Positions 5,905 through 61,818 of a stretch of DNA of 64,000 bases are shown in pieces; positions within the stretch are counted from its first letter, which is position 1, and each line of letters starts with the position of its first letter. The DNA lies in the NCBI GenBank assembly GCA_944393175.1, contig CALXZH010000027.1:54926-118925 (forward strand), given 5' to 3'. The notes beneath the pieces are model-generated. The model made no database searches. It was not told the DNA's origin and saw only the letters and a list, made by a program, of their open reading frames with translations. A program made the translations under genes and the position numbers. The stretch comes from an uncultured Alphaproteobacteria bacterium (GTDB lineage: Bacteria; Pseudomonadota; Alphaproteobacteria; RF32; CAG-239).

Positions 5905-6129
5905 AGTTATCCTGTTTTGTATTTTGTAGTTATGCTTAACATAGTATATTATTGTTTGTCTTGGCAAGTAGAAAACATCAGATATCAATTATTAATTGCT
6001 TTTAGAAATGAACTTTGGGCTTTATCTTCTTGTTTTTTTAAATTATAGTGCTCGCATCAAAGAAAGTAAAAACTTTGACTTTTTATGTTTCTTTGGTGAG
6101 ATGTATCATTTTCACTTTAGAGGATAATA

Positions 6130-7203: not shown

Positions 7204-7235
7204 AAAAAAGCCCGCATCTTAGCGGGCTTTTTTTT
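7204..7235. terminator. Bidirectional intrinsic terminator between convergent mnmA and the ParB-like gene
   Basis: An A-run, the hairpin GCCCGC-atctta-GCGGGC (7210-7227), then a T-run (7228-7235). Confidence 0.75.
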
Positions 7236-7748: not shown

Positions 7749-7758
7749 TTGTTTTTCC

Positions 7759-14624: not shown

Positions 14625-14640
14625 TCGGGAGGACTGAACT

Positions 14641-16878: not shown

Positions 16879-16894
16879 ATCAATACAAATACGT

Positions 16895-16929
16895 AAAAAA
16901 ATGCCGGAGAAAATCTCCGGTATTTTTTT
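16895..16929. terminator. Bidirectional intrinsic terminator between convergent flgL and malQ
   Basis: An A-run, CCGGAGA-aaa-TCTCCGG (16904-16920), then a T-run that overlaps the malQ stop. Confidence 0.7.
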
Positions 16930-19078
16930 ATCTTGCTTTGTGGATAGCTTTGATATTGCGTATGTAGGCAATATCTCCCTCCAAATTTTCAAGCGAGACC
17001 GGAAGCTTGCGCCGCCAATTCGGATGTTTATCAATATCCGTTCCGGGCAGATTTTGCATCTTTTCAACGTGCAATATATCTTCCAACTGGGCTAAAAATA
17101 CTTTAGAATTGGTACGTGATGCAAAAGTATGGACTGCTTCCTCTATCCCTTCAGGATAAGACTCACCATAGAGGTAATCGGCTTTACGCAAATTGTCTTC
17201 AGGCCAACAGCCGTTAATATCCAATGCATGCAATAACTTCCATCTATCCTGCTCTCGTTTGTGGTAAGCATTATTTTTTTCATCTTCGGTCATCATTTGC
17301 AGATTATGCATTAAGGCTATATCATAGCCAAACCACCACATTCTGAGTGGAGCCATATCATGCGTGCCGACCGACATAAAGGCTTTGCTCGGATATTCCC
17401 ACGGGGCATTAAAATCGCCCCAGCCGGCATCTTTTCTTTCGGCCCACAAAACACTCAAAGAATAGATGTTTTTGGCTTCTAATTGCTCAATAAATCCATC
17501 TGGAACGTTGCCGATACTTTCGCCTACAATTTGGCATTTGTTCCGCCAACTTTCCAGTGCTACAATGTTAAGCATATCTTTGAGGTTATACATAATATAA
17601 GTTCCGGGTTCATCACTTTTATCCGGACTGACATATAGCCTCATTAAGCCCATTACATGGTCTATGCGCAAAGCTCCCGCTCCTTGCATATTAGCCCGCA
17701 AAATTTTGATGAAAGGCTCATAGCAACGCTCTTTTAAGACATATGGATTAAACGCACCCAAGCCCCATTTTTGTCCGGCCGGGAAAAATGCATCCGGCGG
17801 AGCTCCCGCTCCTAAATCTTTCAGAAACAAATCATGATCAGACCAAAGTTCGGCACTGTCTTTGCCAACGCCGACTGCCAAATCGCGATACAGTCCTATT
17901 TTGAGGCCGCATTCTTTCACCTTGTCTTCCACTTGCTTAAACTGGCGAAAAGCTTCAAACTGTAAAAATTTAAAAAAGCGAATTTTATCGGCATATTCTT
18001 GAGCAAATTTTCTTACCGCGGCCGAATTTGGATTTTGAAACTCATCTTCCCAACTTCTCCAACCGCCAAAACGGTATGTGCTCTTTATATCATACAAAGT
18101 TTGAAAAAGCGCCAAACGATGTAAACTCTCGCCGTAGGTTTCGACAAAGTCGTGAAATTCTCTTTGTCGGGGTGTGGTTAAATCGGCCATAAAACGACCG
18201 TATAGTTTTTCAAGCACGGCAATTTTCAGCGGATACACTTCTTCGTATTTTATTAATTCACTGGCACGAACTTCCTCTAATTTATCCTTTATTTCTTCTT
18301 TATCTTCAGGCTTAAATTCAGGCACGGCCTCAATATCAATATATATCGGGTTCAAAAACAGGCGACTGATTGAACTATATGGGCTGGCATTTTCAGGAAA
18401 TGTATGCACCAAGACATTGAGCGGATTCAGCCCGATGACTTGCGCCCCGCAACGTGAACAAATTTCTATAAAACGTTGCAAATCGCTGAAATCACCGACG
18501 CCCCAGTTATGTTCACTTTTCAGTGAATATAACTGAATAGCATAGCCCCATGTTTTGCCTTCTTTCAGAATATCATTTTCATAGCACTCTTTAGGTGCTA
18601 CTGCCAAAGTTGCGGTATAATTTTTATCACCGACGGTAAAGGTTATCTTGTAATAGCCTATCGGTAGCTCACTGGTAATTGTCAGCAACATTTTGACATA
18701 AATTGTTTTCCCGATGGTGTAGGTTTCACCGGTAGGATGTATTTCAAACGTAACGGCAGAACTTATGCCCGTATCTTTATTTTCGGCTTGGAGCGCAAAG
18801 TAACTTTGCTCTTGGTCTTTGGCTATTACAGCATCTATATGGATATTTCCTTGTTCTACAACATAAATATTTTCCAACGTTGTTTGCCAACGTCTTTTAT
18901 CAAAATCGGCCAGAGATTTTTTTATCTCACCTAAATTTCCGGCTTTATAGCCCAATTTATCGGCTATAAATCTTACCGTGGAATCAGGAATTTCATATTC
19001 TTGTCTGACTAAGCCGGCATCGGTAAAAGTTGTCGCTATACCGAGTTTATCTGCTAATTGTTTTAAATTTTCTTCCAT
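16928..19078 (-). CDS. malQ: 4-alpha-glucanotransferase (amylomaltase, GH77) with an N-terminal extension
   Basis: NWGVGDFSDL, GALRIDHVMGL and MSVGTHDMAP blocks; last gene of a glycogen operon. Confidence 0.9.
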   Translation of the reverse strand: MEENLKQLADKLGIATTFTDAGLVRQEYEIPDSTVRFIADKLGYKAGNLGEIKKSLADFDKRRWQTTLENIYVVEQGNIHIDAVIAKDQEQSYFALQAENKDTGISSAVTFEIHPTGETYTIGKTIYVKMLLTITSELPIGYYKITFTVGDKNYTATLAVAPKECYENDILKEGKTWGYAIQLYSLKSEHNWGVGDFSDLQRFIEICSRCGAQVIGLNPLNVLVHTFPENASPYSSISRLFLNPIYIDIEAVPEFKPEDKEEIKDKLEEVRASELIKYEEVYPLKIAVLEKLYGRFMADLTTPRQREFHDFVETYGESLHRLALFQTLYDIKSTYRFGGWRSWEDEFQNPNSAAVRKFAQEYADKIRFFKFLQFEAFRQFKQVEDKVKECGLKIGLYRDLAVGVGKDSAELWSDHDLFLKDLGAGAPPDAFFPAGQKWGLGAFNPYVLKERCYEPFIKILRANMQGAGALRIDHVMGLMRLYVSPDKSDEPGTYIMYNLKDMLNIVALESWRNKCQIVGESIGNVPDGFIEQLEAKNIYSLSVLWAERKDAGWGDFNAPWEYPSKAFMSVGTHDMAPLRMWWFGYDIALMHNLQMMTEDEKNNAYHKREQDRWKLLHALDINGCWPEDNLRKADYLYGESYPEGIEEAVHTFASRTNSKVFLAQLEDILHVEKMQNLPGTDIDKHPNWRRKLPVSLENLEGDIAYIRNIKAIHKAR

Positions 19079-49523: not shown

Positions 49524-49560
49524 TAAAAAAATTCTACTCCGCCGTATATAACGGCGGAGT
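49524..49560 (-). terminator. Intrinsic terminator closing the phage-like operon
   Basis: ACTCCGCCGT-atata-ACGGCGGAGT, followed in the minus sense by T7, and 10 nt after the stop at 49570. Confidence 0.7.
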
Positions 49561-49569
49561 AAGTATGCT

Positions 49570-49968
49570 TTATTTTAGTAAGCTTTGCGTTGCATTCAAC
49601 AATCCGTTTACGGTATTGCTGCGAATTTTATATTTGGTATTTATTTTATTGGTTTTATACTGATTATAATAATTATAGTCATCTTCTGCTATGTCTTTGT
49701 AGCCTTGGTAAGCTTCACGATTTTGTTCGGCGGCGGCTGAACCATCTCCGCTTAACCCCATTGCTGCGACACGAGCTCGTCTTTGTGCCAAATTTTGCTC
49801 CAAGATATTGGTTTTTCTTTCACGATTTGCCTGTTGGTCATGGACTAATTTATTTTGTTCCATTTTATAATTTTTTTGCATATTGCGATTATCTTCAACC
49901 ATATTATACAAGTCTTGCGCACTGGCTAAGCCCTTGCTGGCATTTTCCATTGTCATTAATTGTCCCAT
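49570..49968 (-). CDS. Phage-cluster hypothetical protein (Q/N-rich, helical)
   Basis: 132-aa ORF, last in the operon. I recognise no family. Confidence 0.45.
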   Translation of the reverse strand: MGQLMTMENASKGLASAQDLYNMVEDNRNMQKNYKMEQNKLVHDQQANRERKTNILEQNLAQRRARVAAMGLSGDGSAAAEQNREAYQGYKDIAEDDYNYYNQYKTNKINTKYKIRSNTVNGLLNATQSLLK

Positions 49969-49979
49969 AGTTTTTCTCC

Positions 49980-51884
49980 TTACTCTTTTAATTTAATTTC
50001 TACCACGGCTGAAAGCAGGGTAAACGATAACGGTTCATCACTTTTGATACTCCACATCGGCTTATCCATATCACGTATCCAACCTATGGCTCTCATTTGA
50101 ACATCTCCCGAATAGGTCATCGGCGGAGCGTCAAAAATTTTATCTTGATGTATTCGTTTTAGCGGATACTGGAAATATCCTCCGCCAATATCAATACATA
50201 AAGATTTACTGTTGATTATACGGAATCTGGCGTTTATTACTCTTAGTGCTTTAGGGGCATAAGGTCTTTCGCTTTCTACCATATAAGGTAAAGGCTCTAT
50301 CCAGTGTTCATAAGGTATGCCGACAAGTAATTCGTCGGCTTCATCCAAAAGGTGAATTTCTCCCTCCTCTACCGGAAATTTGCCTAAACTAAATCCATTT
50401 GCCAAAACAACGACTTCTTCTCCTTCCAAATGTTCCAACCCGCTCCAATCTCTTTGCGGTTGTTCGGAAGTTAAGCGAATGGCACAATCCGAATAATAAT
50501 CATCAGCCAATTTTTCAAGAAAATAGCCATTTTGACGTTTGACACAAAAATATACGTTGTTGCCGATTACGGCAACTGACAAAAACTTGCCTTTGGTTGT
50601 TAATTTGCTCCAAGCGGTCACTTCTTCGGTTCGGTAGCTGGTCAGACTGGAAACACTGCCATCTTCCAAAACAATATAAAGGACACACTCATTGGCATCA
50701 AAGCTTATATCTCGAGGAGATGCTATAATATCATTGGAAAGAATCGTTAAATCCTTAGCCTGATAAGCTTGCTCAACATCTGCATAGAGAAATTCTCTTA
50801 ACTGACGACCATTTCGGGAAACAAATACCGTAGCACCATCTATTTGCTGAGGCATAAGAATTTTGTCGGAATACATACCGACGCTGGTTTGCCGTTTGAG
50901 CTGAATATTTTCAGGCGTCAAAGGTTCTCCGGTCACCATCCATTCAGCCCCGGTGGTAAATACAAGTAAGTGACGGCTCGAAACAACGGCTTTGATTGCA
51001 TTGACCTGGTCAGATAAAATGCCAAACTCAATTGCTTCATCGTCTAATGCATCGCCTAAGTCAAAATTAAACAAATCCGATGATTTTGAAAGCCATAAGC
51101 GGTTTGGCAAATCTCGCGATCCTCCGATAACCATGCGGTTTTGGTGGAAAGTAACTGAAACAGGCCAGCCTCTTGCATTTGAAAAAGCAGCCTCGGCCCA
51201 GTCGTTGGTAACATCCGTCGAAGTAAAATTTTTTAAAACAGTGGCTTCTACTACCTTAGCACTTGTTACCTTTGTTATCTTGGCCAGACCTTTCTGATAC
51301 TTAATATAGCTTCCGGCTTGACTGGACATCCAGATATCTGTTTCTGAGCTCAAGGTAACATTTCCACTGCCTCCGTTGGCCCAAATTTTAGGCTTTTTTT
51401 GATAAAAATTATAGAATGGCATAAAAATCATTCCTGCATCATCACTATAATATTCCCAATCTTCAATTTTCCAGACTTCATTATTATTTCTGGTGATTTG
51501 TTTAGGCGCTACATCGGGATGAACTATCAAAAATGTATCGGCACTTTGAGTATAGTTGAGCTGCCAAAGCTGATCTCCCGACCAAGGTGTTGTCAGTTCT
51601 GCTATGATGTTATCATCTTTAAGAACTTGCAGCTTATTATCCGTAAGGCATAACAGATATATTTGCTCTGTATTAAACTCAAACGGAAGCAGGCGAAGCG
51701 GCTTATCGACTTTGCTTACAAACTGCAAACCTTTTCTACGAGATACGCCTCCGGTGGGGTGAATTATTACATTTTCAAGATGCCTCGCGCCGTTGGCATA
51801 AACTCTCAAATCGCCTCGACCCAGCAAATCAGTCGACATTTGTCCCGCGGTAAAATTGGTTTTAACAGATCCTAAGTTACTCAT
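49980..51884 (-). CDS. Tail tubular protein B-like (T7 gp12 position)
   Basis: 634 aa, directly after the gp11-like gene with an ATGA overlap. The N terminus NFTAGQMSTDLLGRGDLRVYANGARHLENVIIHPTGGVSRRKG resembles podoviral nozzle proteins as I recall them. Confidence 0.5.
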   Translation of the reverse strand: MSNLGSVKTNFTAGQMSTDLLGRGDLRVYANGARHLENVIIHPTGGVSRRKGLQFVSKVDKPLRLLPFEFNTEQIYLLCLTDNKLQVLKDDNIIAELTTPWSGDQLWQLNYTQSADTFLIVHPDVAPKQITRNNNEVWKIEDWEYYSDDAGMIFMPFYNFYQKKPKIWANGGSGNVTLSSETDIWMSSQAGSYIKYQKGLAKITKVTSAKVVEATVLKNFTSTDVTNDWAEAAFSNARGWPVSVTFHQNRMVIGGSRDLPNRLWLSKSSDLFNFDLGDALDDEAIEFGILSDQVNAIKAVVSSRHLLVFTTGAEWMVTGEPLTPENIQLKRQTSVGMYSDKILMPQQIDGATVFVSRNGRQLREFLYADVEQAYQAKDLTILSNDIIASPRDISFDANECVLYIVLEDGSVSSLTSYRTEEVTAWSKLTTKGKFLSVAVIGNNVYFCVKRQNGYFLEKLADDYYSDCAIRLTSEQPQRDWSGLEHLEGEEVVVLANGFSLGKFPVEEGEIHLLDEADELLVGIPYEHWIEPLPYMVESERPYAPKALRVINARFRIINSKSLCIDIGGGYFQYPLKRIHQDKIFDAPPMTYSGDVQMRAIGWIRDMDKPMWSIKSDEPLSFTLLSAVVEIKLKE

Positions 51885-52450
51885 AACCTTGCCTCCATTA
51901 ATGAATAGTCTTCCAAGGTTCTCGGGGTTCCTTGTTGGGCGTCGGTCAACCGCGCCTTATTGATGGTTTCTTCGGCCAATTTTTCAAGTAACTCCGCGCG
52001 TGTGGTACTTTCGGTCAAAGGCAAACAAAATTCTGCCGCCAATTTGGCCGTTAATGCTTCGCAAAAAAATGCCGGAAACGTACTCTCATGTGGGCGAAAA
52101 ATATAACTTAAGCTAACATTTTCGGCATTTGTATGCAGCCTGTTCTCATAAATTCTGTATTCGATGCCCCTGCCCCTTTTGCCGCTTCCGGCTGAGATAA
52201 CGCGTAAAAAATCGTTGGGCAGCAAATATGCATACTGATAATCGGCTACAGGTACATTATTTAATCTGGGCAAAGTTTTTTGTGCTTTGGCAAAACTCCA
52301 CGGATAAGAAGATAACAGACTATCACGAATCAGAGGATACAAGCTGTAAGCTATCTCTGCTTCAGCCGTGCCGTCTTCAAACGAGGTAATGCCTTCCGCG
52401 CCGATTTTCAGTAATGCATTGGAACATATCCCTATATTGGTATAACTCAT
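51881..52450 (-). CDS. Tail tubular protein A / adaptor-like (T7 gp11-like)
   Basis: ICSNALLKIGAEGITSFEDGTAEAEIAYSLYPLIRDSLLSSYPWSFA parallels the gp11 N-terminal pattern (N.iL..iG...vssle......a......l.s.gW.Fn). ATG at 52450 follows a GGAG SD. Confidence 0.55.
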   Translation of the reverse strand: MSYTNIGICSNALLKIGAEGITSFEDGTAEAEIAYSLYPLIRDSLLSSYPWSFAKAQKTLPRLNNVPVADYQYAYLLPNDFLRVISAGSGKRGRGIEYRIYENRLHTNAENVSLSYIFRPHESTFPAFFCEALTAKLAAEFCLPLTESTTRAELLEKLAEETINKARLTDAQQGTPRTLEDYSLMEARL

Positions 52451-52460
52451 AAACTTCTCC

Positions 52461-52501
52461 ATATAAAAAAGGAGAAACCTTTAATGCATAAAGGTTTCTC
52501 C
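52461..52501 (-). terminator. Strong hairpin plus T-run between the head and tail-tube genes
   Basis: 13-bp perfect stem GGAGAAACCTTTA-atgca-TAAAGGTTTCTCC, followed in the minus sense by TTTTTTATAT. Confidence 0.5.
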
Positions 52502-52531
52502 TGCCTTTGCTATTAATGTTATATAACTTTA

Positions 52532-52789
52532 CTAGGCCGCAGCTGAAGTAAAGTCTGATACTGTGACGGCACCATCGCTAATAGATGTTACGGCCAAAAT
52601 TGCCGGTGTAACCGTACTTTGGTTATCGGCAACGGTCAGTATCATATCTCCTAAACGCGCAAACGGGGCAATATCATCAAAATAATTTGCTCCCTTGACG
52701 GTGCTTAAGGAATCTGAGGTGGTGTAATTCCAAAGCGTAAAACCATTGGCATAGGCCATTACACTAAAATCTTTTGACATAAACGACAT
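52532..52789 (-). CDS. Small virion-module protein (85 aa), function unknown
   Basis: ATG at 52789 follows a GGAG SD and lies 11 nt after the capsid stop. Confidence 0.45.
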   Translation of the reverse strand: MSFMSKDFSVMAYANGFTLWNYTTSDSLSTVKGANYFDDIAPFARLGDMILTVADNQSTVTPAILAVTSISDGAVTVSDFTSAAA

Positions 52790-52800
52790 ATTATTTCTCC

Positions 52801-53640
52801 TTATTCGCTGATTGAAGATTCTTCTTTGCATTTAATACGAACGACACCGGTCGGATCAATTAAGCATGCGCCTTGGCTCATCATATTATTAACAAAGTGA
52901 GCTGCATGGTCACCGTGCCATGTGATGTCGCTTTGGACATCTTTGCCGCAAGCATGACCGACTGCTGTTTTATGGAAAATAAAGCATTGACGCTCCGTTC
53001 CGTTTAAGGGCAAACCGGTATGCATAATCCAGTTGATACCTAACCATTTGCGGCTTTCGGTTCCTTTTAAGAACGGAAGATTATCGCCGGCATAATCCGA
53101 ATTTGAGAACTCGGCAATATTGAGCAAGGCATTCCATTGGTAAGGGCCTACCAAACCAAAACGTTGTCCGTCATCGGGAACATCGTTTGAGTTTAATTTG
53201 GCAAAGGCATCCAAAATGTCTTTTTTGCTCATAGCCAAGCTATAATCTCCAACATCATTATCTTCGGGGGCTTTGCTCAAGGCTTCAATAATCAATTCAT
53301 CGGTTTTGCGACCCAAGGCATAAGCACCGGAATTGGCAATGACGCGGCGCTCATCAATGCTGACTTTTAATTCATCCAAAGCATCTACCCAATCGCCGGC
53401 ATAGTAATCTTGAAGTTCACACTCTATCGGGGTATGGTCCAAAGACATTACCGGGACTAAACCATGGCGTGCTTTTTGTGAGGCCGTACCTTTGCCTACC
53501 TTTTGAAAGACTGTTGATGAGCCTTTGACATTGTTTTTGGTTCGAACCGCATTTCTCAATTTTGAGCCGTTTTGTTGGTAAGCCAAATGCACATCGGCTT
53601 CAAATTGTTTGATAAAGGATTCGGTTATTTGTGTTGACAT
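52801..53640 (-). CDS. Phage major capsid protein
   Basis: 279 aa, with a strong AGGAGG SD, positioned after the scaffold. FIKQFEADVHLAYQQNGSKLRNAVRTKNNVKGSSTVF...DYYAGDWVDALDELK...GRKTDELIIEAL resembles podoviral (BPP-1/N4-type) coat proteins as I recall them. Confidence 0.75.
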   Translation of the reverse strand: MSTQITESFIKQFEADVHLAYQQNGSKLRNAVRTKNNVKGSSTVFQKVGKGTASQKARHGLVPVMSLDHTPIECELQDYYAGDWVDALDELKVSIDERRVIANSGAYALGRKTDELIIEALSKAPEDNDVGDYSLAMSKKDILDAFAKLNSNDVPDDGQRFGLVGPYQWNALLNIAEFSNSDYAGDNLPFLKGTESRKWLGINWIMHTGLPLNGTERQCFIFHKTAVGHACGKDVQSDITWHGDHAAHFVNNMMSQGACLIDPTGVVRIKCKEESSISE

Positions 53641-53670
53641 ATTTTCCTCCTATTTGTGATTAACCTATAT

Positions 53671-53702
53671 AAAAAAGCCCTGAAAAGGTTTATTTTTCAG
53701 GG
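53671..53702 (-). terminator. Hairpin plus T-run overlapping the scaffold stop, upstream of the capsid gene
   Basis: CCCTGAAAA-ggtttat-TTTTCAGGG, followed in the minus sense by CTTTTTT. Confidence 0.4.
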
Positions 53703-54412
53703 TAGAGTTTTTCAAATCCGCGCGTAATCTTATTGATATAAGCACTGTCTTTGTCGCGCCAGTAACGCGGATCTTCCATCATCTTGCGTAAGGTCTGTTC
53801 GCTCAACTCGCCTTCATAGCCGTTGTCTTTGCTAAGTATCGGTTCGTTAGACGACATCATCTTATACAAGGCTATTACGCCTTCGGCCGTTGAACCTAAA
53901 GCGTCATAGACTTCCGTGCTCAAATTTTGCTTTGCCCAAGCTGCCAGTTGGCGAGAAACTTCATCAAATCTTTCTTGCCCGCCAAAATAATTTATCAGTT
54001 TGGAAAGTTGCTTTTGAGCCTCAAAGTTTACGGTCAACTGGTCTAAGACCGGAATGACACGTTCATTAGCCAAGTCATAAACAAATTGTGCTTGATCGTT
54101 GGTGAAGCCATGTTCATAAAATTGTTTGAACAATTCTTCATCTCGGTCCAACAATTCGTTGGGAATGTTTATCTGATATTTATCATAACTTTCCGGCATA
54201 TTGCGGTTATGGGTTTCTATCAGATTTTCATCTCTGATGGCCATAGAATTATAATCATCTATCAATTCTTGGAGTTTGACCGTTTGTGTGGCCTCATCCC
54301 AAAATTTTGGCGGCAAATTTGCAGGTTTGCCGTTGGTTTGAGATGGAAAGCCTGAATTTTGCTGTGCGGCAAGATTCATTGCGTTGAAATTTTCAACTGG
54401 TTTTTCTTTCAT
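53690..54412 (-). CDS. Probable capsid scaffolding protein
   Basis: 240-aa acidic, helical protein between the portal and capsid genes. The call is positional. Confidence 0.5.
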   Translation of the reverse strand: MKEKPVENFNAMNLAAQQNSGFPSQTNGKPANLPPKFWDEATQTVKLQELIDDYNSMAIRDENLIETHNRNMPESYDKYQINIPNELLDRDEELFKQFYEHGFTNDQAQFVYDLANERVIPVLDQLTVNFEAQKQLSKLINYFGGQERFDEVSRQLAAWAKQNLSTEVYDALGSTAEGVIALYKMMSSNEPILSKDNGYEGELSEQTLRKMMEDPRYWRDKDSAYINKITRGFEKLYPEK

Positions 54413-54431
54413 CTTTTTTTCCTTTCTTTGG

Positions 54432-54656
54432 TTAATTTTCGTCTGATATCTTGTTTTGGATTATTGCAACCAGATGTCTTTGGCCTTCCAGATGACGCAA
54501 AGCATCAGAAGAACTTTCCGGTCCCAAGTATCTCTCTTGAGTCAGACGTTTTAGGTAAGAGAGGACTATTTGCCCCTCTCTGCTCGAAAAGCATTTTACA
54601 AATGCTTCACGAATTTGTGCTTCCGACATTTGTCGGGTATCATACAGCGGCAACAT
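54432..54656 (-). CDS. Small phage protein, possibly Bbp19-like
   Basis: FVKCFSSREGQIVLSYLKRLT resembles the Bbp19-type motif as I recall it. ATG at 54656 has a GGAG SD; the track start at 54677 is a TTG. Confidence 0.4.
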   Translation of the reverse strand: MLPLYDTRQMSEAQIREAFVKCFSSREGQIVLSYLKRLTQERYLGPESSSDALRHLEGQRHLVAIIQNKISDEN

Positions 54657-56169
54657 CTCCGTTCTCCGTAGTTTCAACCTCTGTTTGGGGTGGCGTTTCT
54701 TTGATTAAATTTGAGGGAACGCATAAGGTTTTTCCCAACCATCTTGAGGCTTCTTCCACGTTAACCGCCATTAAGGCATCTTGTCCGAACGAGGCTAGCA
54801 TTGAAACCCATTCGCTGACATTGGTAATGTCTTTTCTTGTTTGTGCTAACGCTAAAGGCGACTTATACTGTAAGTCAACTATCTTGCCGTCTAAATCAAA
54901 ATTCGGAATATCTCCGCGGCGGCGTAAAATATGAAACGCCCTCTTTAATAACGGCGTAAGCAGCTCTGATTGCAACCGTCCGAAGGTTGCGCCCAAAATA
55001 CGTGCTACTTCGGCCGAACGTTCCAAAACTTCAGTCGCGGTCATATTCGGCGTGGCAATTTGTGATAGTCTGTCTGCCAGCAAAGAATGATTTATTCTTT
55101 GGCGCAAATCGGACAATATGAGCTGTGAAACATCAAAATCACCAGGAGCACTCAATGGCGTTAAGCCTTTAGAACCCACCGCTTTGGGAATAATTGCTCC
55201 AGGAACGAGTTTGATGTTATCGGGATTTAGGATGCCATCGTCATCTGCTTGCCAAATTCCCGTTACCGCAATAGAGGCATTTTTCAAAATCAATTCCACA
55301 ACTTTATTGGCGGTTTTTATATCAGGCAATGCTTTCATGACCGGGGAACGGCCATAAATTTCTCCGGGGGCTTTTAACCACCTAAAGTTAATAAACGGTG
55401 AGGTTTCAAATATTCCTTCTTTTAAGACAAAGCTATCTTCATAGCCCCCATTTTCATCCCAAGCAAAAGCTATATAATTATATCCGCATGCGCCCGAATT
55501 ATAATTTCTCGGCATTACAGCCTCAATAATACTTACTTGGCTGTCAGGGTCTTGCTGCAATCTTTCTTGCATCAAGGGCGGAATGTCTGCTTCGGGAAAG
55601 CGCGTCCTAATGCCCTCAAAATTGAGTTTGGAACAGCGAAAAGTCGTATCAATTTTTCCGTCGGCACTCTCTTCTATGGCAATTTCTCTTAGCGGAACGG
55701 CATAAAAATGAAAAGCCGTGGCTTCTCCGATGCTTGATTCTTCAAACATTAAACAAGCCGTCCCTACCGTTACCAAATCCAAATAACACTGGTGAACTTC
55801 GACTGCAAAATTTGAATGCTCAAAATTTTGCAACATTACCTCTGAGGCCTTCTCCAAAATAGGAGCGACTTGTTCTTGTTCGGTCGGACTTAATTCATTT
55901 CCCGGTCTTAGTCCAAACCATTTTGCCCAAGGCGGGGTTAATTCAGAAAGTAAAGATGAGGCTAATTGGTCAACCGCATCCGGTGCCGTTCCATCATAGA
56001 GGCACAAATTTTTCTTTGTACCGGGCTGTGTGTCATAGCTAAAGGAACTGACATTTTCTCTTAAAGGAAAGGCATATTCGTAGCATTCTTTCCAATGATT
56101 CTCCCAGTTTTGTTTTCTCTCGGAGGCTTTCTTATATCGGCTTACCAATCTTTCAAGTTGAAACTCCAT
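54640..56169 (-). CDS. Portal protein (T7 gp8-type head-to-tail connector)
   Basis: 509 aa. N-terminal LVSRYKKASERKQNWENHWKECYEYAFPLRE matches the head-tail-connector family pattern. It sits between the terminase/lysis genes and the scaffold. Confidence 0.8.
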   Translation of the reverse strand: MEFQLERLVSRYKKASERKQNWENHWKECYEYAFPLRENVSSFSYDTQPGTKKNLCLYDGTAPDAVDQLASSLLSELTPPWAKWFGLRPGNELSPTEQEQVAPILEKASEVMLQNFEHSNFAVEVHQCYLDLVTVGTACLMFEESSIGEATAFHFYAVPLREIAIEESADGKIDTTFRCSKLNFEGIRTRFPEADIPPLMQERLQQDPDSQVSIIEAVMPRNYNSGACGYNYIAFAWDENGGYEDSFVLKEGIFETSPFINFRWLKAPGEIYGRSPVMKALPDIKTANKVVELILKNASIAVTGIWQADDDGILNPDNIKLVPGAIIPKAVGSKGLTPLSAPGDFDVSQLILSDLRQRINHSLLADRLSQIATPNMTATEVLERSAEVARILGATFGRLQSELLTPLLKRAFHILRRRGDIPNFDLDGKIVDLQYKSPLALAQTRKDITNVSEWVSMLASFGQDALMAVNVEEASRWLGKTLCVPSNLIKETPPQTEVETTENGDVAAV

Positions 56170-56171
56170 GG

Positions 56172-56396
56172 CTATTCTCCCAAGAGATTTTTTCGTTTGA
56201 GGCTATCTTCTTTTTCTCCAAGAATGCCGTTATATGAAGTACGAATCGTGCCTTCTTGTCCGCGACGTTGACGTGCCAAATTTTCTTGTCTTTCTTCTTC
56301 GGCCTTTCTCTTGGCTTCTGCTTCCGTATCAACAACCGGAACTATCGGTTGTTCTACTTTCGGCGTACTGAAATACTTAAATACTCCTCCCATCAT
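56172..56396 (-). CDS. Small charged phage protein
   Basis: 74-aa ORF that ends immediately before the portal start. Confidence 0.4.
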   Translation of the reverse strand: MMGGVFKYFSTPKVEQPIVPVVDTEAEAKRKAEEERQENLARQRRGQEGTIRTSYNGILGEKEDSLKRKNLLGE

Positions 56397-56757
56397 TATT
56401 TCCTTTCATTTGATTGTGGTTTATTTTGACTGATGTAACTTTGGTTGATGAATGTTTTGCTTCCGGAAGGGAACTCTTTACGACTGAAATTCCCATAACT
56501 CCCAAAGCCATACTCCAAAGTGATGTGGTTTCAACAAGTGCCATAATAATTGCTTCTGCCTTGGGGTGATTTATCCAAATAACCCAACAAATGGTGCCCA
56601 TTTGCAAAACCCAAGTCAGACAGATAGAATACCCAAATAGCGGACGCCAATTATTCTCCCAAGATGCATTTTTTCCTTTACGCCTTGGTGAATTATTCGC
56701 ACAAAAAAAGCGGCGCATCATACTTATCAGCACCGCCAATATTTGTTTGCTTTTCAT
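56377..56757 (-). CDS. Holin-like membrane protein (possibly the DUF3154 3TM holin family)
   Basis: NASWENNWRPLFGYSICLTWVLQMGTICWVIWI plus a second TM segment, located immediately downstream of the endolysin. Confidence 0.5.
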   Translation of the reverse strand: MKSKQILAVLISMMRRFFCANNSPRRKGKNASWENNWRPLFGYSICLTWVLQMGTICWVIWINHPKAEAIIMALVETTSLWSMALGVMGISVVKSSLPEAKHSSTKVTSVKINHNQMKGNNDGRSI

Positions 56758-56761
56758 GTTA

Positions 56762-57178
56762 TCACCTCTCTATATCGTTATAAAAAAGGTGATGTCCGAT
56801 TTCGGCACAAGGTATTTTGCCTCTTGCCCAAGAGGGATTTGTGCTCTTGGTGTGATAGTGAGTCGCATGCGACGTGCTATCCTCCAGAAGACCCGAAATG
56901 GCTCTGCCGGCAATTCTTTTACAAATACAAAAAATTATATCCGTATCAGAGACTTTTTGAATTAAAGCATAATTGGCATCATTCTTATTCCAACAAGAAA
57001 ATTGGTACGGGTAGCGGCATATATCTTTAATCGTATTGCCCCACCAATATCGCCCTTTCTTTTTACTTAATGCCAAACGGTTTAAAACAACTGAGGCGAC
57101 AGCTTCCATGCCGGATATGCTCTCGCCTCGTGCCTCCCCATAAATCGTGCGGGCTAATGTGTCCAAATCTTCACTCAT
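56762..57178 (-). CDS. SleB-type cell wall hydrolase (endolysin)
   Basis: LARTIYGEARGESISGMEAVASVVLNRL...ATHYH is typical of the Hydrolase_2 (SleB) family. Confidence 0.85.
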   Translation of the reverse strand: MSEDLDTLARTIYGEARGESISGMEAVASVVLNRLALSKKKGRYWWGNTIKDICRYPYQFSCWNKNDANYALIQKVSDTDIIFCICKRIAGRAISGLLEDSTSHATHYHTKSTNPSWARGKIPCAEIGHHLFYNDIER

Positions 57179-57462
57179 CTTGACCTCCCTACTTCATCTA
57201 ATTTTTTCTCTATTCTTAGTAAGTGATTGGTCAGGCGGTTTTCGACATCTTTAAGATAGCCCGTGGAAACATAATTTCTGGCAACATGAAGTTTGAAATC
57301 GGCTAAAGCTTCTTTGCACACATCTACCCTGCCTTCGGTATGATTTTGAGTGGCTAGAAGTTGTTCCTCCATCTCTTTTCGCTGCTTGACCAGCATACGA
57401 AATACCGCTACAAACAGCGGCAATTCAATCATTGCTATCCAATTTATCAATTCATTAAACAT
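57175..57462 (-). CDS. Membrane-anchored coiled-coil protein of the lysis cassette
   Basis: An N-terminal TM segment (WIAMIELPLFVAVFRMLV) followed by a helical region. It overlaps the endolysin start as ATGA. Confidence 0.4.
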   Translation of the reverse strand: MFNELINWIAMIELPLFVAVFRMLVKQRKEMEEQLLATQNHTEGRVDVCKEALADFKLHVARNYVSTGYLKDVENRLTNHLLRIEKKLDEVGRSR

Positions 57463-57473
57463 CTTAGTTTTCC

Positions 57474-58970
57474 TTATACGCTAAAATTGGTTTGTGCCTT
57501 AAACTGGTTTGAACTTCCCTGCCAGCTAAAACGTTTATATTCTCCTTCTCCCGAAACTTGTGCAAAACGTATCGGCTCGGAGGATAAACAGCCGGCAACG
57601 GCGTCTAGACCATCATCATGGACGCTGCCTTCTACATTCCACTCTCTCATTTCTTCAATAAACGGAGTGTTCCAAATTCTGCGGTGCGCATTTAAGGCTC
57701 GCTCTGCCAGCAAAACTTCAAAAGCCTCCAAAATTCGAACGGCTTTATTGGTTGAAGAATACATCTCTAACACCGCCGTGCGAATCTTGCGCTTTTGCAA
57801 AGTTTGTTTGAGGATACCCGGCAAAAACTTTCCTATGCCGTTGGCTTCGACCCGAATGGAAGGCAAATGATTTCTTTCAATAAAATCCGCAACCTTTTCA
57901 CATTGGAGCGAGGCTTGATTATCCTGAGGCGTGTCTGCAAGTTTAATATATTCAACGTCGTGCAGCCAAAATTTTCCATCTTCATCGGTAAAGACACAGG
58001 CAATAACACTATTGTCTCCTGACGAAGAAGCAAAAGACGGATCCCACCAGCAAGATGCCGACAGCAATTTCTTATCCCCCAAGTGCAAAATTTCTCGTCC
58101 GTTGGCAAAAGTTTGCGTGAGTTCTAAGTTGTAAACACACAACCTCTCGGGATTTAGCACACAATCTCTGAAATTTACCGGTTGCAACATCATCTGTGAT
58201 AAAAACTTATTCTCTCCAGAGCGTTGGCGGAGAGAGGCTATCTTTTCTACAGAAAATCTTTCAGGCCACGCGCTTTGCCCATGCTTATCCAAAATGGGAA
58301 TCTCTAATTTTTGAAAATTTAACAAAAATGGTTCCAATTCGGGACGCGAATCGTCATAAGCTATTTGGTAAATGGTATAAAATGTATGTGGTGTTCCTAT
58401 ATATAACTGCATTCCTTCTGGGGTTAAGATATAGTCCAGCTCCTCCAACTTTTCTCGTAATTCAAGTCGTTTGAGAGAAGTATCACAGTTTTTGGGAACT
58501 TCGACATCATCACAAATTATTAAATCCGCTCGCAAACCGGTTATATTGGCTCCTATTCCCTTTGCAAGCATGGACGGGTCGCGTAATTCCTGATTGCGTC
58601 TGATGGTAAACTGGTCTGAGGCCCATTGCTCCAGTTTTTCTGGTTTTAGCTCTTTGGTTAGCGGATGTTGCTCAATAATCCTTTTAACATTACGAACCAT
58701 CTTTTTGGCCAAGGCGTGATCTGCTGCCATTACCAAAATACGGGTTGCCGTTTTGGTATACAAAACCCATGCACAAAAAAGACCGACAATGGTAGATTTG
58801 CCTGAATTGCGAAATGCCATCAGTAAACCTTGTCGGTCTTTGTCACTTTGCCACAGATTGCTCAACCATTTTGCAATCTTACGTTGGTGCTTGGGAACTG
58901 AGAGATTTTGTAACTTGAACCAGATATAAATAAACTCATAAAAGCTAATCTTGTTCATCTTCCGCACCAT
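57474..58970 (-). CDS. Terminase large subunit
   Basis: Walker A AFRNSGKST, Walker B LIICDDVE, and a C-terminal nuclease-type half (SCWWDPSF..., DDGLDA). Confidence 0.85.
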   Translation of the reverse strand: MVRKMNKISFYEFIYIWFKLQNLSVPKHQRKIAKWLSNLWQSDKDRQGLLMAFRNSGKSTIVGLFCAWVLYTKTATRILVMAADHALAKKMVRNVKRIIEQHPLTKELKPEKLEQWASDQFTIRRNQELRDPSMLAKGIGANITGLRADLIICDDVEVPKNCDTSLKRLELREKLEELDYILTPEGMQLYIGTPHTFYTIYQIAYDDSRPELEPFLLNFQKLEIPILDKHGQSAWPERFSVEKIASLRQRSGENKFLSQMMLQPVNFRDCVLNPERLCVYNLELTQTFANGREILHLGDKKLLSASCWWDPSFASSSGDNSVIACVFTDEDGKFWLHDVEYIKLADTPQDNQASLQCEKVADFIERNHLPSIRVEANGIGKFLPGILKQTLQKRKIRTAVLEMYSSTNKAVRILEAFEVLLAERALNAHRRIWNTPFIEEMREWNVEGSVHDDGLDAVAGCLSSEPIRFAQVSGEGEYKRFSWQGSSNQFKAQTNFSV

Positions 58971-59262
58971 CCAATTCTGCTCTTGCCTCGGATAAGAGTT
59001 TTAATATATCTTCTGTTCCGCTCATTGTATTTGTGTCAGTTGTTCCCTCTTCAGTCCACTTGGCTAATTTTAACAATGTCTCGGCGTGATTAACTGCCGA
59101 TTTGCAGGCACTGTGGTGTGCACTAAAACCCTTGGCATCTTCGGGAATGGGTCTTTCCGAAAATGTTTCATAACTCTCTAGCACCTGTGAAACTTTTTCG
59201 GGAAGGGTTCTTTGCAAATTTTTCTTTAAGGACTTTAGTGTCTTGGCCTTTTTGAAATGCAT
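58945..59262 (-). CDS. Hypothetical protein, candidate small terminase subunit by position only
   Basis: 105-aa ORF immediately upstream of TerL, overlapping it by 26 nt. Confidence 0.3.
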   Translation of the reverse strand: MHFKKAKTLKSLKKNLQRTLPEKVSQVLESYETFSERPIPEDAKGFSAHHSACKSAVNHAETLLKLAKWTEEGTTDTNTMSGTEDILKLLSEARAELDGAEDEQD

Positions 59263-59291
59263 TTTAACTCCTTTCTTTTACAGGTCTTTAA

Positions 59292-59329
59292 ATATAAAAA
59301 AATTCGCTAAGACTTGTGGTCTTGCGAAT
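59292..59329 (-). terminator. Intrinsic terminator between the two leading small genes and the packaging/structural operon
   Basis: Minus sense: ATTCGC-AAGAC-cacaa-GTCTT-a-GCGAAT (11 bp with one bulge), followed by TTTTTTATATT, about 30 nt upstream of the ATG at 59262. Confidence 0.6.
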
Positions 59330-59396
59330 CTTACTTTGTTTTGGACACACTAATAGCAAGTGGCGTTTTTGTATGTAGCAAATTTTTTTGTGTTTG

Positions 59397-59810
59397 TCAA
59401 GACTTTTTTCCTACAATTTTTAATATTTTTTGATAAAGCTGCCATGGCGTGTGGATAAATCTGTCATGAATGCCTATGGCACGCTTTACAAATTCTACGC
59501 AAGTAAAGAACGATAAAGGAGAACATTTTAACGGTGCTTGCCTAATCTCAATCGGGCATAATATAACTTTGCGACTCCGTTTTATATAATCTGCAAAATC
59601 AAAATCTATCGGATAGTCATAAACAAATACGGCGGTTTGATTAGAAAATGGATTTAGTTCAATCCACATGCCGCTATTTTTCATTTTTAACAAAAGATAA
59701 CAATGCCTAAACCCCGGCTTTAGAAATCTTAACCACCAGATGGTGGTATTATCTGAAAAAACAACATAACATTTTTCATAATCTTGCTTGGCAAATACAT
59801 CTAAGCGCAT
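59397..59810 (-). CDS. Phage-cluster hypothetical protein
   Basis: 137-aa ORF overlapping the upstream gene by 10 nt. I cannot name a family. Confidence 0.4.
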   Translation of the reverse strand: MRLDVFAKQDYEKCYVVFSDNTTIWWLRFLKPGFRHCYLLLKMKNSGMWIELNPFSNQTAVFVYDYPIDFDFADYIKRSRKVILCPIEIRQAPLKCSPLSFFTCVEFVKRAIGIHDRFIHTPWQLYQKILKIVGKKS

Positions 59811-60142
59811 TGCGTAATGATTCCTTTAGAAAGTAAATAATATTCAAAAACATGTATACCCTCATCCCAAAGTCTGATTTCACTTCTTTTGGCTCGATAA
59901 TTATAGTAAGGCGGACATTCCAGTTGTCCCCATTTTACCATAACCCGCAAATGACGATTGGTGATATGATGATTTAGTTTCATTTTTTTTATGATGCGAT
60001 AAATATCTGCTACTTCGCAATTTCTTTGTTTTCCTTTGTAATCGTTACACGACCTTAGACCATTATCTCTGGCCAGCATACAACCACAAAACCAAAACCA
60101 GACTTGTTCAGCATTATCAAAAGGTTCATACTCTTCTATCAT
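59801..60142 (-). CDS. Small putative DNA-binding regulator, first gene of the leftward operon
   Basis: 113 aa. HITNRHLRVMVKWGQL looks like a sigma-region-4/LuxR-type HTH. This is a weak call. Confidence 0.3.
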   Translation of the reverse strand: MIEEYEPFDNAEQVWFWFCGCMLARDNGLRSCNDYKGKQRNCEVADIYRIIKKMKLNHHITNRHLRVMVKWGQLECPPYYNYRAKRSEIRLWDEGIHVFEYYLLSKGIITQCA

Positions 60143-60169
60143 TAGGCAACCTCCAGCTTGCGTTCTATT

Positions 60170-60184
60170 TTAACTAAACGTTAA
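60170..60184. promoter_or_regulatory. Palindrome TTAAC-N5-GTTAA, candidate operator in the divergent control region
   Basis: A perfect 5+5 inverted repeat lying just downstream of a candidate leftward promoter (TTGAAA, 16-nt spacer, TATAAC on the minus strand). Confidence 0.3.
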
Positions 60185-60233
60185 CTTTATTTGTTATATA
60201 TTAGGTTGTAGGAATTTCAACACAAAAAAAGAA

Positions 60234-60262
60234 TTGAATCCTAAAATCTTTTGTTGTATACT
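60234..60262 (+). promoter_or_regulatory. Candidate sigma-70 promoter of the repressor gene
   Basis: TTGAAT, a 17-nt spacer, then TATACT, about 40 nt upstream of the ATG at 60304, which has an AAGGAGG SD. Confidence 0.45.
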
Positions 60263-60303
60263 TTTTTTGTGCTCGTAAAACATAGAGAAAACAAGGAGGA
60301 ACA

Positions 60304-60921
60304 ATGCAATATGAACAAGTTTGGGATGCTGTTGATAAGTTAGCAAGATTACACGGCCTTTCTCCTTCGGGACTGGCAAAAAAAGCCGGTCTCGATGCTA
60401 CTACTTTTAACAAAAGTAAAAGAACTCGTCGTGACGGAAAACAGAGATGGCCCTCTTTGGATAGTATTAATAAAATCTTGGATGCCTGTAATATCTCTTT
60501 TGAACAGTTTTATCAACTCATAGATGAAGATTTGGCTACTCAAGCTGAGGGAATTCCTTTTATACGTTTTTCTGAATTGGAAAAAAACGGTATTAAAAAT
60601 TCTAAGTTAGTAACCGATAAGTGGGAAAAAATTCAATTTCCCGATACGACGGTAAACCTTTACGCCGTTAATTTAGACACTGCAGATTTTGAGCCAATCT
60701 TTAGAAAAGGAAATACCCTCATTGCAACTAAAGATCCGGAAATCAGAAAAGGAGACCGCGTCTTGATTTTTTTGATAGAGGGGTCTCCTATCATTAAAGA
60801 ATTTAGACATCGTACAACCTCTACTCTTGTGTTCGGAGACTTGATATCCCCTAATCACGAAGTGCAAATTAACATTTCTGATATTAAGCTTATTAACCGA
60901 ATCGTTTGGGCTGAACAATGA
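60304..60921 (+). CDS. HTH plus S24 (LexA/CI-like) repressor; the catalytic Ser appears to be replaced
   Basis: N-terminal HTH (LSPSGLAKKAGLDATTFNKSKR). The C-terminal beta domain reads NLDTADFEPIFRKGNTLIA...GDRVLIF...IIKEF, aligning to G(D/N)SMEP....GD.v.v...vKrl. Confidence 0.8.
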   Translation: MQYEQVWDAVDKLARLHGLSPSGLAKKAGLDATTFNKSKRTRRDGKQRWPSLDSINKILDACNISFEQFYQLIDEDLATQAEGIPFIRFSELEKNGIKNSKLVTDKWEKIQFPDTTVNLYAVNLDTADFEPIFRKGNTLIATKDPEIRKGDRVLIFLIEGSPIIKEFRHRTTSTLVFGDLISPNHEVQINISDIKLINRIVWAEQ

Positions 60922-61148
60922 CAGGATTGAAAACATATTTAGAAAATGATTCTAAATTTTTAGATGATTTGGAGCGCAAGTTTGATAATTTGCCTTGGGT
61001 AAATGATGTTTCTTTATTGCTCTCTTTAGATAAAATTTGTTATAAATATACTAAAGAATTAGCTCGTAATCGGCTTATTTTGCATAAATGTCGGCCTTTG
61101 GAAAAAAACTTGCGCATTTATCGAAATTATGCCATTCGTCTTAAATGA
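60918..61148 (+). CDS. Hypothetical small protein, translationally coupled to the repressor
   Basis: 76-aa ORF whose start overlaps the repressor stop as ATGA. Confidence 0.35.
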   Translation: MTGLKTYLENDSKFLDDLERKFDNLPWVNDVSLLLSLDKICYKYTKELARNRLILHKCRPLEKNLRIYRNYAIRLK

Positions 61149-61164
61149 TACGGGAGTATGTCGC

Positions 61165-61818
61165 ATGAAACTTTTTAAAAAACTGATTAAAATTAAGGGA
61201 AAAAATAATCAACTCCTTTCTCCCAAAATTAAAGGTAATGGTTTTTATGACAGATCTCCCGTTAAAATTACGGGTAATCAGAATATTATTAATATTCATC
61301 CCAATAATAAATTTTATAAATTAGAGTTAATCATCAGCGGTAACAACAACCATATTTCGATTGATGAGGGATGTTGGGGCTCCTTAAAAATCATTATTAA
61401 TACCGATAACGCCTCTGTCAAAATCGGTAAAAACTGCGTATTTAGAGGCGTGGATGCAGGCCTGTGGGAAACGGGGAGCTCTCTTTCTATCGGTGACGAA
61501 GTCATGATTGCCAGAGATTCTCGTCTTTATGTTTCTGATTTTCACAGTATTGTTAACATTAACTCCATGGAAGCAATCAACCAAGGAAAGTTCATTACTA
61601 TAGGCAACCATGTGTGGATTGGCGAAAGAGTTTTTGTTTTAAAAAATAATACAATTGCTGACGATATTATGGTGGCAGCAGGCTCAATCGTTACAAAAGA
61701 TTTATCCGAAAGCCATTCCATTTATGCCGGAAATCCTGCCAGAGCCGTGAAGCATGATGTTACTTGGGCAGAAGACAAATTTGATGATTATCAGGCAAAA
61801 CATTTGGCTAATTCTTAA
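61165..61818 (+). CDS. Hexapeptide-repeat (LbH) O-acetyltransferase-like protein
   Basis: IGNHVWIGERVFVLKNNTIADDIMVAAGSIVTKD...YAGNPAR. ATG at 61165 follows a GGGAG SD. Confidence 0.7.
   Translation: MKLFKKLIKIKGKNNQLLSPKIKGNGFYDRSPVKITGNQNIINIHPNNKFYKLELIISGNNNHISIDEGCWGSLKIIINTDNASVKIGKNCVFRGVDAGLWETGSSLSIGDEVMIARDSRLYVSDFHSIVNINSMEAINQGKFITIGNHVWIGERVFVLKNNTIADDIMVAAGSIVTKDLSESHSIYAGNPARAVKHDVTWAEDKFDDYQAKHLANS

Follow-up and report, generated by a model that had tools for sequence, protein, structure and literature searches.

A podovirus-type structural operon in gut Alphaproteobacteria: evidence for domestication and a possible gene transfer function

Introduction

We have analyzed a 64,000-nucleotide stretch of DNA from an uncultured alphaproteobacterium (GTDB lineage RF32; CAG-239; GenBank assembly GCA_944393175.1, contig CALXZH010000027.1, positions 54,926 to 118,925 of the forward strand), which we refer to as the window. 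It contains a compact cluster of podovirus-type head, tail, packaging and lysis genes, and this cluster raises the question of whether we are looking at the debris of a decaying prophage or at a phage-derived particle that the host has kept, as with gene transfer agents (GTAs). An earlier reading of this DNA, made from the sequence alone, had leaned toward domestication rather than decay, and had remarked that a podovirus-derived element of this sort would be unusual in Alphaproteobacteria. Below, we describe how the cluster compares with its chromosomal relatives, with phages and with the known GTAs, and we weigh the alternatives where the evidence that bears on them appears.

Results

Gene content of the cluster

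The cluster consists of 16 intact open reading frames (ORFs), tightly packed and co-directional on the minus strand, which run from position 60142 down to 49570 in window numbering (Table 1). With the divergent CI/LexA-like repressor gene that bounds it at one end and the strong terminator at the other, it occupies 49534-60921. Matches to Pfam, NCBIfam, PHROG and Protein Data Bank (PDB) profiles confirmed the gene content and order assigned in the sequence-only reading; the large terminase, TerL, shows legible Walker A (GKST) and Walker B (LIICDD) motifs, and solved podovirus tail components (PDB 8ck1, 9efk) match the adaptor and nozzle. Its proposal that g03 encodes the small terminase, TerS, stood only as to position, immediately before TerL: no terminase family matched, and the label is positional because the sole match is to a PHROG family without assigned function. 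Two details of the same reading needed correction, in that the many 4-nt overlaps it described occur at just 2 junctions, g05/g06 and g14/g15 (the remaining overlaps are 10-38 nt), and the clean intrinsic terminator, which is indeed present and strong, lies at 49534-49562 and not at 49524-49560.

Pfam and NCBIfam searches of the window proteins found no integrase or replication gene in the cluster, and the only direct repeats around it that resembled att sites were short, AT-rich chance matches. We also used tblastn, with fibres from a sister group of loci (group C, below) and the fibre and core proteins of phage Hodr (OQ414635) as queries, and found no ejection or internal core proteins equivalent to T7 gp14-16 in the 64-kb window or in any of the related loci that we call group A. 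Thus the replication, core/ejection, fibre and integrase genes of a functional T7-supergroup or pelagiphage (pro)phage were found neither in the window nor in the group A loci, as the sequence-only reading had noted for this cluster, and the borders hold no att repeats and no integrase, features that would have spoken against domestication.

Conservation and co-divergence with the chromosome

Relatives of the window capsid in GTDB species genomes belong to uncultured gut Alphaproteobacteria, namely 'Ca. Scatocola', which NCBI taxonomy places within Rhodospirillales, and CAG:495, represented by metagenome-assembled genomes (MAGs) from humans, chickens and ruminants. A tblastn search of all window proteins against the relatives' loci recovered the same 16 genes, in the same order and with the divergent repressor, in about 30 species-level genomes, and most of these loci have the same host neighbors, with YhdP and a 165-aa ORF at one end and an esterase, a solute-binding protein and MlaC at the other. 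In all, at least 35 species-level genomes carry the 16 genes in this host context. A full-length prophage occupies the site in none of the relatives; the flanks and the reduced gene set are shared, as expected if domestication rather than decay is the correct description.

The conservation extends to the individual genes. ORF lengths were essentially constant in 26 genomes, the exceptions being one short nozzle and one short adaptor. In the group A comparisons, the flanking host proteins were only 45-60% identical whereas the capsid was 84-88% identical. Median Nei-Gojobori ratios of nonsynonymous to synonymous substitution rates (dN/dS), which are approximate because many dS values are near saturation, were 0.015 for the capsid, 0.03-0.05 for the adaptor, portal, g05, TerL, nozzle and g01, and highest for g13 and the holin (0.19-0.21), so that all 16 genes fall within 0.015-0.21; the flanking host genes gave 0.03-0.10. 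The fastest-diverging gene of the cluster is g16, with 30-48% protein identity across group A and a dN/dS of 0.083. Every cluster gene is under purifying selection, at a level equal to that of the flanking host genes.

Distances computed from the concatenated cluster and from the flanks were correlated with r = 0.96, and in a Mantel test none of 5000 permutations reached the observed value. The 2 trees are nearly identical, and the evolutionary rate of the cluster is about 0.7 times that of the flanks. These observations bear directly on the possibility of an ordinary defective prophage, in which integrase, replication, core and fibre genes were recently deleted and the remaining genes drift neutrally. 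Such a remnant would be expected to lack many phage functions and to be absent from many related species, both of which we observed; yet the 16 ORFs remain intact in 26 species despite the divergence of the flanking proteins, dN/dS is low throughout, the cluster co-diverges with its flanks, its operator is conserved (see below), and no longer prophage occupies the site in relatives. Because a conserved gene set, intact ORFs, low dN/dS, co-divergence with the flanks and an invariant operator are the reverse of decay, we regard a decaying prophage as highly improbable.

One feature of the head genes stands apart. The dS values of the capsid, scaffold and g10 genes (52801-54677) were 0.35-0.53, two to four times below those of TerL, nozzle and flanks in the same genome pairs; dS of the flanks was 1.2-1.7. 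This could be due to selection for codon usage in genes that are highly expressed, or to exchange of the head-gene segment among lineages by recombination.

The repressor and the divergent control region

The repressor (Table 1), taken as a single sequence, had no match in the PDB. Alignment with E. coli LexA and with the group C orthologues indicated that its S24 domain has lost both the catalytic serine, with DTADFEP replacing GxSMxP, and the Ala-Gly cleavage site. RecA-driven self-cleavage is therefore not expected in the window lineage, because the protease residues are gone. We observed a series of such losses among the sister groups. The group C repressors are LexA-like, with the Ala-Gly site, the serine of GxSMxP and the lysine in place; in group A the serine is lost and often the lysine as well; and in group B only a 91-aa HTH (helix-turn-helix) protein is left. 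The HTH domain itself is highly conserved across all 3 groups. The sequence-only reading had called this repressor host-type, which it is not: it is phage-derived and belongs to the element.

The arms of the inverted repeat between the 2 divergent genes overlap the -35 hexamers of both promoters. Within the 160-nt control region, the repeat TAGGAATCAA-N13-TTGAAATTCCTA was invariant in 12 aligned species, as was the second repeat, TTAAC-N5-GTTAA, and the main repeat motif occurred exactly once per locus in 23 group A loci. A related repeat, TAGGAA...TTCCT, is found in group C.

Presence, absence and the question of mobility

A second scan, a profile search anchored on the esterase, yielded 78 species with the esterase neighborhood. 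The cluster was present in 36 of these; 20 had a clean empty site, at which the 165-aa ORF or an acetyltransferase gene abuts the esterase gene; in 9 the repressor gene alone lay beside the esterase gene; and another 9 were rearranged, several of them with the cluster beside the YhdP gene at another place in the contig. Half-decayed copies were not seen among the 78 species, the cluster being either intact or cleanly absent, a pattern that fits selection on the whole unit where it is kept. On a tree of 3 flanking proteins, which is not strongly resolved, the empty-site species fall into at least 6 separate clades among the cluster-bearing ones. Repeated deletion of the whole cluster is the simplest account of this, because the cluster tree follows the flank tree. 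The repressor-only species form a deep-branching set, with a divergent repressor homologue next to the esterase gene and neither the cluster nor the TAGGAAT...ATTCCTA repeat; the lone repressor is either a deletion scar or a gene retained for another role.

Patchy presence at an otherwise identical locus is also what one would expect of a mobile element, either a satellite of the type of the capsid-forming phage-inducible chromosomal islands (cf-PICIs) or a unit spread by homologous recombination of the conserved flanks, and the low dS of the head genes relative to the flanks could be read as exchange between lineages. The cluster resembles cf-PICIs in that these are small islands of 10-15 kb with their own capsid, portal and terminase. 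However, cf-PICIs come with an integrase, att sites and a replication module but take their tails from a helper phage, whereas the window cluster has no integrase, replication or primase gene or att sites, and encodes an adaptor and nozzle, hence a tail stub, of its own. Its tree mirrors that of the flanks, and in groups B and C its genes are split by host genes. We therefore consider a mobile element improbable, though spread by recombination should be kept in view as a rival.

Sister groups with interleaved host genes

The capsids of groups A, B and C are 62-66% identical between groups. Group B, found in Ca. Enterousia and many rumen and gut MAGs, has capsids 63-66% identical to that of the window, and its arrangement, in which the cluster genes are interleaved with host genes, is common to 44 species. 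The order begins with the HTH-only repressor remnant, a 151-aa ORF, lipB, a lysis gene, scaffold, capsid, g13, adaptor and nozzle, and continues with a 115-aa ORF, a 197-aa fragment of TerL carrying the ATPase, 3 genes on the opposite strand that include a full-length dnaB, a 307-aa fragment with the TerL nuclease domain, and the portal; the flanks are priA, lpxI and a tRNA methyltransferase gene. Both halves of TerL have constant lengths and dN/dS values of 0.04 and 0.14. We have disregarded the corresponding values for the group B capsid and DnaB, which are artefacts of ORF-start and overlap problems. In one representative locus (L033), the N-terminal half of TerL lies at 13758-14351, the opposite-strand ORFs at 14348-17917 and the C-terminal half at 17610-18533, and the same split was seen in about 44 loci; the 3.3 kb between the halves encode a 217-aa ORF, a double-HTH protein and the full-length DnaB. 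In the same locus, lipB (7245-7925) stands between the repressor remnant and the lysis gene.

Group C has capsids 62-64% identical to that of the window and 74-91% identical to one another. Its members come from Rhodovibrio, dozens of Azospirillum species, Niveispirillum, Skermanella, Roseospira and a large number of Rhodospirillales MAGs. The genes of this group are arranged as repressor, g01, g02, portal, g10, scaffold, capsid, g13, adaptor, nozzle, small ORF, fibre, g03, TerL and lysis genes. Here too the cluster is interrupted by host genes, which are variable in number and are inserted exactly at the scaffold-capsid and g13-adaptor junctions, the 2 positions at which the window has its internal hairpins (53678-53702 and 52470-52502). 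In several Azospirillum species, genes for a GGDEF-EAL protein and a hybrid histidine kinase lie between the scaffold and capsid genes (for example, at 4788-8771 of locus L149). The flanks examined in group C consist of host genes and contain no integrase. Since host genes lie among the cluster genes of the sister groups, neither movement nor packaging as a single phage genome is open to the cluster there.

The group C fibre is 646-680 aa in length and matches the Hodr fibre over its first 150 residues; in some group B loci, only a short ORF with this N-terminal domain is left. Homologues of the 2 large internal proteins of Hodr were found in none of the 3 groups.

Group C may also connect with earlier work on Azospirillum, in which 10-kb GTA-like particles of A. 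lipoferum were tentatively attributed to RcGTA-like genes, and in which a "phage-related lysozyme" in conserved context was the one phage-related gene noted in the core genome of Azospirillum (PMC3899980). This lysozyme might be the group C endolysin, in which case the T7-like structural genes beside it would have gone under the label hypothetical.

Relationship to phages and to known gene transfer agents

The nearest phage matches were distant. For the capsid, Hodr was 43% identical and the next phage 33%; for the portal the best value was 36%; and TerL was 26-30% identical to T7-like and other podoviruses of about 35 kb, with no phage above 30% and no detectable similarity to the TerL of Hodr. 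Hodr, the HTVC010P-type pelagiphages and T7-like podoviruses share with the window cluster the order portal, scaffold, capsid, small ORF, adaptor, nozzle, small ORF. These phages, however, have genomes of 34-40 kb with replication genes, internal proteins and a fibre, none of which has a counterpart in the cluster. Following its nozzle gene, Hodr encodes a 159-aa ORF, proteins of 783 and 1247 aa and a 349-aa fibre, which we take to correspond to the T7 order gp13, gp14-16 and gp17.

Among the top 80 capsid relatives in IMG/VR there was no contig longer than 21 kb, all being 4-21 kb. Hundreds of such "viral" contigs of 4-21 kb, the top 80 included, are the chromosomal loci described here, from all 3 groups and in some cases cut from isolate genomes; automated prophage callers thus file host-maintained loci as viruses in IMG/VR and mislabel host DNA. 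One GenBank entry, MT838907.1 (5084 bp, "UNVERIFIED: Bacteriophage sp.", from human faeces, Mexico), is a group A fragment that extends from nozzle to portal, with a capsid at 79.5% identity. It may derive from a virome study of DNase-treated virus-like particles (PMC8361208), and is our only lead toward particle production.

The cluster shares several properties with RcGTA (Rhodogtaviriformidae). Each is a chromosomal set of head, tail and packaging genes of phage origin that lacks integrase and replication genes; each is inherited vertically, evolves slowly and has been lost in some lineages; and each probably depends on the recipient for DNA entry; RcGTA particles are released by lysis, and the holin family PF11351 is common to the 2 elements. 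The structural genes are nevertheless unrelated. The RcGTA set is of the HK97/siphovirus kind, with a prohead protease, a tape measure and a long tail, in contrast to the T7-type portal, scaffold, adaptor and nozzle found here, and neither a protease nor a tape measure was among the Pfam matches of the window cluster. The 2 elements also differ in regulation, which involves CtrA and GafA for RcGTA and a linked CI-like repressor for the cluster, and the capsid of the latter may not be size-reduced.

BaGTA (Bartogtaviriformidae) is likewise alphaproteobacterial, host-associated and vertically inherited, and occupies about 11-14 kb at a fixed chromosomal site (PMC6899734). It differs in having a run-off replication module, a host of another order and strict conservation within its genus, whereas the window element has no such module and is often lost. 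Sulfitobacter phage pCB2047-C has a TerL reported to fall inside the TerL clade of BaGTA (PMC9662315), and with this phage as our only proxy for BaGTA, BLASTP of the window TerL, capsid and portal gave E values of 0.4 or more; Bartonella genomes did not appear among the matches. Identity with the Bartonella element, to which the low GC content had at first pointed, is rejected in view of the gut alphaproteobacterial relatives together with the lack of similarity to the proxy. A podovirus-derived element is unusual in Alphaproteobacteria, as had been supposed, because it is homologous neither to RcGTA nor, as judged by the proxy, to BaGTA.

FpGTA of Faecalibacterium is another GTA-like operon of about 10.5 kb in gut bacteria, with podovirus-like particles (PMC12946183). 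Compared by description, it differs in its Firmicutes host and its experimental packaging evidence. Literature searches found no published description of the present element, which belongs to a large and apparently undescribed family.

Features of individual genes and surroundings

Table 1. Features of the window cluster and its control region (window numbering)
Feature	Position	Strand	Properties and matches
g01	59801-60142	-	113 aa; four-helix protein; motifs AExVWFWF and RHLRVxxxWG
g02	59397-59810	-	137 aa; His36, Cys37 and Cys104 invariant and motif FTCVExVKR in alignments
g03, candidate small terminase (TerS)	58945-59262	-	105 aa; only phrog_31793 (no assigned function), 5e-41
g04, T7-type large terminase (TerL)	57474-58970	-	498 aa; NF033889 termin_lrg_T7, 4.6e-123; PF17289
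g05	57175-57462	-	95 aa; N-terminal transmembrane segment, then coiled coil; phrog_29007, 7e-33
g06, SleB-type cell-wall hydrolase (endolysin)	56762-57178	-	138 aa; PF07486, 2.4e-20
g07, holin	56377-56757	-	126 aa; 2-3 transmembrane segments legible; PF11351 GTA_holin_3TM, 0.0035 (weak)
g08	56172-56396	-	74 aa; small, charged; weak phrog_831 match
g09, portal (T7 gp8 type)	54640-56169	-	509 aa; PF12236, 2.1e-138; PDB 9efk_A, 8ck0_A
g10, Bbp19-like small protein	54432-54677	-	81 aa; PF25181, 7e-13
g11, T7-type scaffolding protein	53690-54412	-	240 aa; PF05396, 1.3e-18
Terminator-like hairpin, scaffold/capsid junction	53678-53702	-
g12, major capsid protein	52801-53640	-	279 aa; PF19821, 4.7e-76; PDB 9eg4_A, 1e-28
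g13	52532-52831	-	99 aa; small, after capsid gene; phrog_18004, 9e-19; homologue of Hodr 81-aa ORF
Internal terminator/attenuator between g13 and adaptor gene	52470-52502	-	14-bp stem
g14, head-tail adaptor (T7 gp11 equivalent)	51881-52462	-	193 aa; weak PF17212; PDB 8ck1_E "Connector Protein", 4e-6
g15, tail nozzle (T7 gp12 equivalent)	49980-51884	-	634 aa; PF25675, 1.2e-10; PDB 8ck1_A "Tail Nozzle", 3.9e-54
g16	49570-49968	-	132 aa; Q/N-rich, coiled-coil-like; no family match
Intrinsic terminator ending the operon	49534-49562	-	12-bp stem with 7 GC pairs, then T-run
CI/LexA-like repressor	60304-60921	+	205 aa; HTH and S24 domains; PF13443 and PF00717 (both weak); phrog_4
Divergent control region	60170-60243		Inverted repeat TAGGAATTTCAA (60209-60220) / TTGAATCCTA (60234-60243)
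Cluster promoter		-	TTGAAA, 16 nt, TATAAC
Repressor promoter		+	TTGAAT, 17 nt, TATACT
Second inverted repeat	60170-60184		TTAAC-N5-GTTAA

Seven of the 16 proteins (g01, g02, g03, g05, g08, g13 and g16) matched at best PHROG families without assigned function. Neither g01 nor g02 had a match in Pfam, PHROG, NCBIfam or PDB profile searches, and their AlphaFold2 (AF2) models, with predicted local distance difference test (pLDDT) scores of 85 and 85.6, respectively, had no fold match in the PDB; the g02 model matched only uncharacterised phage proteins in BFVD (E = 1e-7). We regard g01 as a candidate regulator. Micavibrio genomes contain annotated homologues of g02 (42-46% identity), and the cluster family, or at least g02, may by this sequence likeness extend to predatory Alphaproteobacteria. 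The g05 product is probably a spanin-like or holin-associated lysis protein, and g13 may be a capsid accessory protein; g16, which has the position of T7 gp13, may be a distal tail or plug protein. The weak match of the window holin to PF11351 is matched by a stronger one for its group C orthologue (4.5e-13); the family takes its name from the RcGTA holin and is not confined to GTAs.

The neighbors of the cluster are cellular on both sides, as the sequence-only reading had stated: MlaC, an SBP_bac_3 solute-binding protein and an esterase on one flank, and a hexapeptide transferase and YhdP on the other. The remainder of the window is ordinary chromosome (FlgK, GlgB/GlgX/MalQ, GltX, SecA, GlmS, DsbD). 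The repressor ORF overlaps a 76-aa ORF (60918-61148), which in turn overlaps the hexapeptide acetyltransferase gene (61129-61818), and the 3 look like a single plus-strand operon, 60304-61818. The 76-aa ORF and the transferase gene are limited to close relatives, and the transferase gene persists at some empty sites.

Discussion

We think it probable, on balance, that the cluster is what remains, in domesticated form, of a T7-supergroup podovirus, with pelagiphages as its nearest phages, and that it persists as a host-kept, non-mobile operon that still encodes a complete DNA-packaging particle. The domestication as such is well supported, and we hold it with considerable confidence. Gene transfer is a plausible function, which we put forward tentatively. 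The observations in favor of our reading, from the gene set and its intactness to selection, co-divergence and a gap in identity to phages, are the computational hallmarks that have been used to define GTA viriform families (PMC9662315). We found a phage structural and packaging set that is fixed in the host without replication or integration functions of its own, together with vertical inheritance, purifying selection, slower evolution than that of viral homologues and a clear identity gap to phages, all of which are general properties of GTAs.

On such a model, the CI-like repressor, bound at the conserved inverted repeat, would shut both promoters, and repression would be lifted by some signal other than RecA-driven self-cleavage. 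The operon would then be transcribed, with g01 and g02 probably acting as early or regulatory factors. Portal, scaffold and capsid would assemble into proheads, in proportions that the hairpins after the scaffold gene and after g13 may set through expression ratios, and TerS and TerL would fill the heads with DNA of the chromosome, the presumed substrate because there is no replication or excision of the element and no recognisable pac/cos context. Adaptor, nozzle and g16 would close the heads with a short tail, and holin, SleB-type endolysin and g05 would lyse the producer cell. The DNA would be delivered at most into the periplasm, because the window lineage has no ejection proteins and no linked fibre, and uptake would be left to the recipient's own machinery, as for RcGTA and BaGTA. 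Candidates for adsorption are g16, as the fastest-diverging protein, and the nozzle, and a fibre encoded elsewhere in the genome is conceivable.

Several of our observations weigh against this reading. Neither the 64-kb window nor any group A locus yielded a fibre or receptor-binding protein, which leaves adsorption unexplained, and family, PDB-profile and AF2 searches assigned no function to g01, g02, g03 or g16. The capsid, with 279 aa, is about as long as that of the 34-kb Hodr; this hints at a full-size head, which, unlike the heads of small-headed GTAs, could hold the whole 11-kb cluster. The cluster is dispensable, as judged from the scattered empty sites, and the dN/dS values carry the approximation noted above.

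Some of the same facts would suit a domesticated particle with a role other than transfer, such as altruistic lysis triggered by stress, with release of protected DNA, or action as a killing or decoy particle or against phages. The lack of fibre and ejection proteins speaks against efficient delivery, the dispensability of the cluster is compatible with such a role, and PBSX-type elements are known to package DNA and yet act as killers (PMC12946183). Against this, Pfam and PHROG searches of the cluster found no toxin or defence domain, and the strongest constraint falls on terminase, portal and capsid, which suggests that DNA packaging itself is selected. We consider a non-transfer role somewhat unlikely, though it deserves to be kept in mind.

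If the cluster is indeed a GTA, it could represent a third, independently domesticated family in Alphaproteobacteria and the first from a T7-supergroup podovirus, a proposal that we regard as possible but still speculative. In its full form, this proposal would have the family span gut 'Ca. Scatocola'/CAG-495-like bacteria, Ca. Enterousia, Azospirillum, Niveispirillum and Rhodovibrio, with DNA-filled particles that move chromosomal DNA; the ejectosome would have been lost in all lineages, the gut lineages would also have given up the fibre and the self-cleavage of the repressor, and Enterousia would have gained a functional two-piece terminase.

Few independent origins of GTAs are known, and the 2 alphaproteobacterial ones dominate thinking on why cells keep such elements. 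A separate podovirus origin, if true, would be a natural replicate for phage domestication. The element occurs in hundreds of species, from bacteria of the human and animal gut to the culturable, genetically tractable and plant-associated Azospirillum, and its groups offer graded stages of the process: from an SOS-type repressor through a dead protease domain to an HTH-only protein, from a fibre through a fibre stub to none, and from a contiguous cluster to one interleaved with essential host genes. In the gut Alphaproteobacteria, it could be an unrecognised route of gene exchange.

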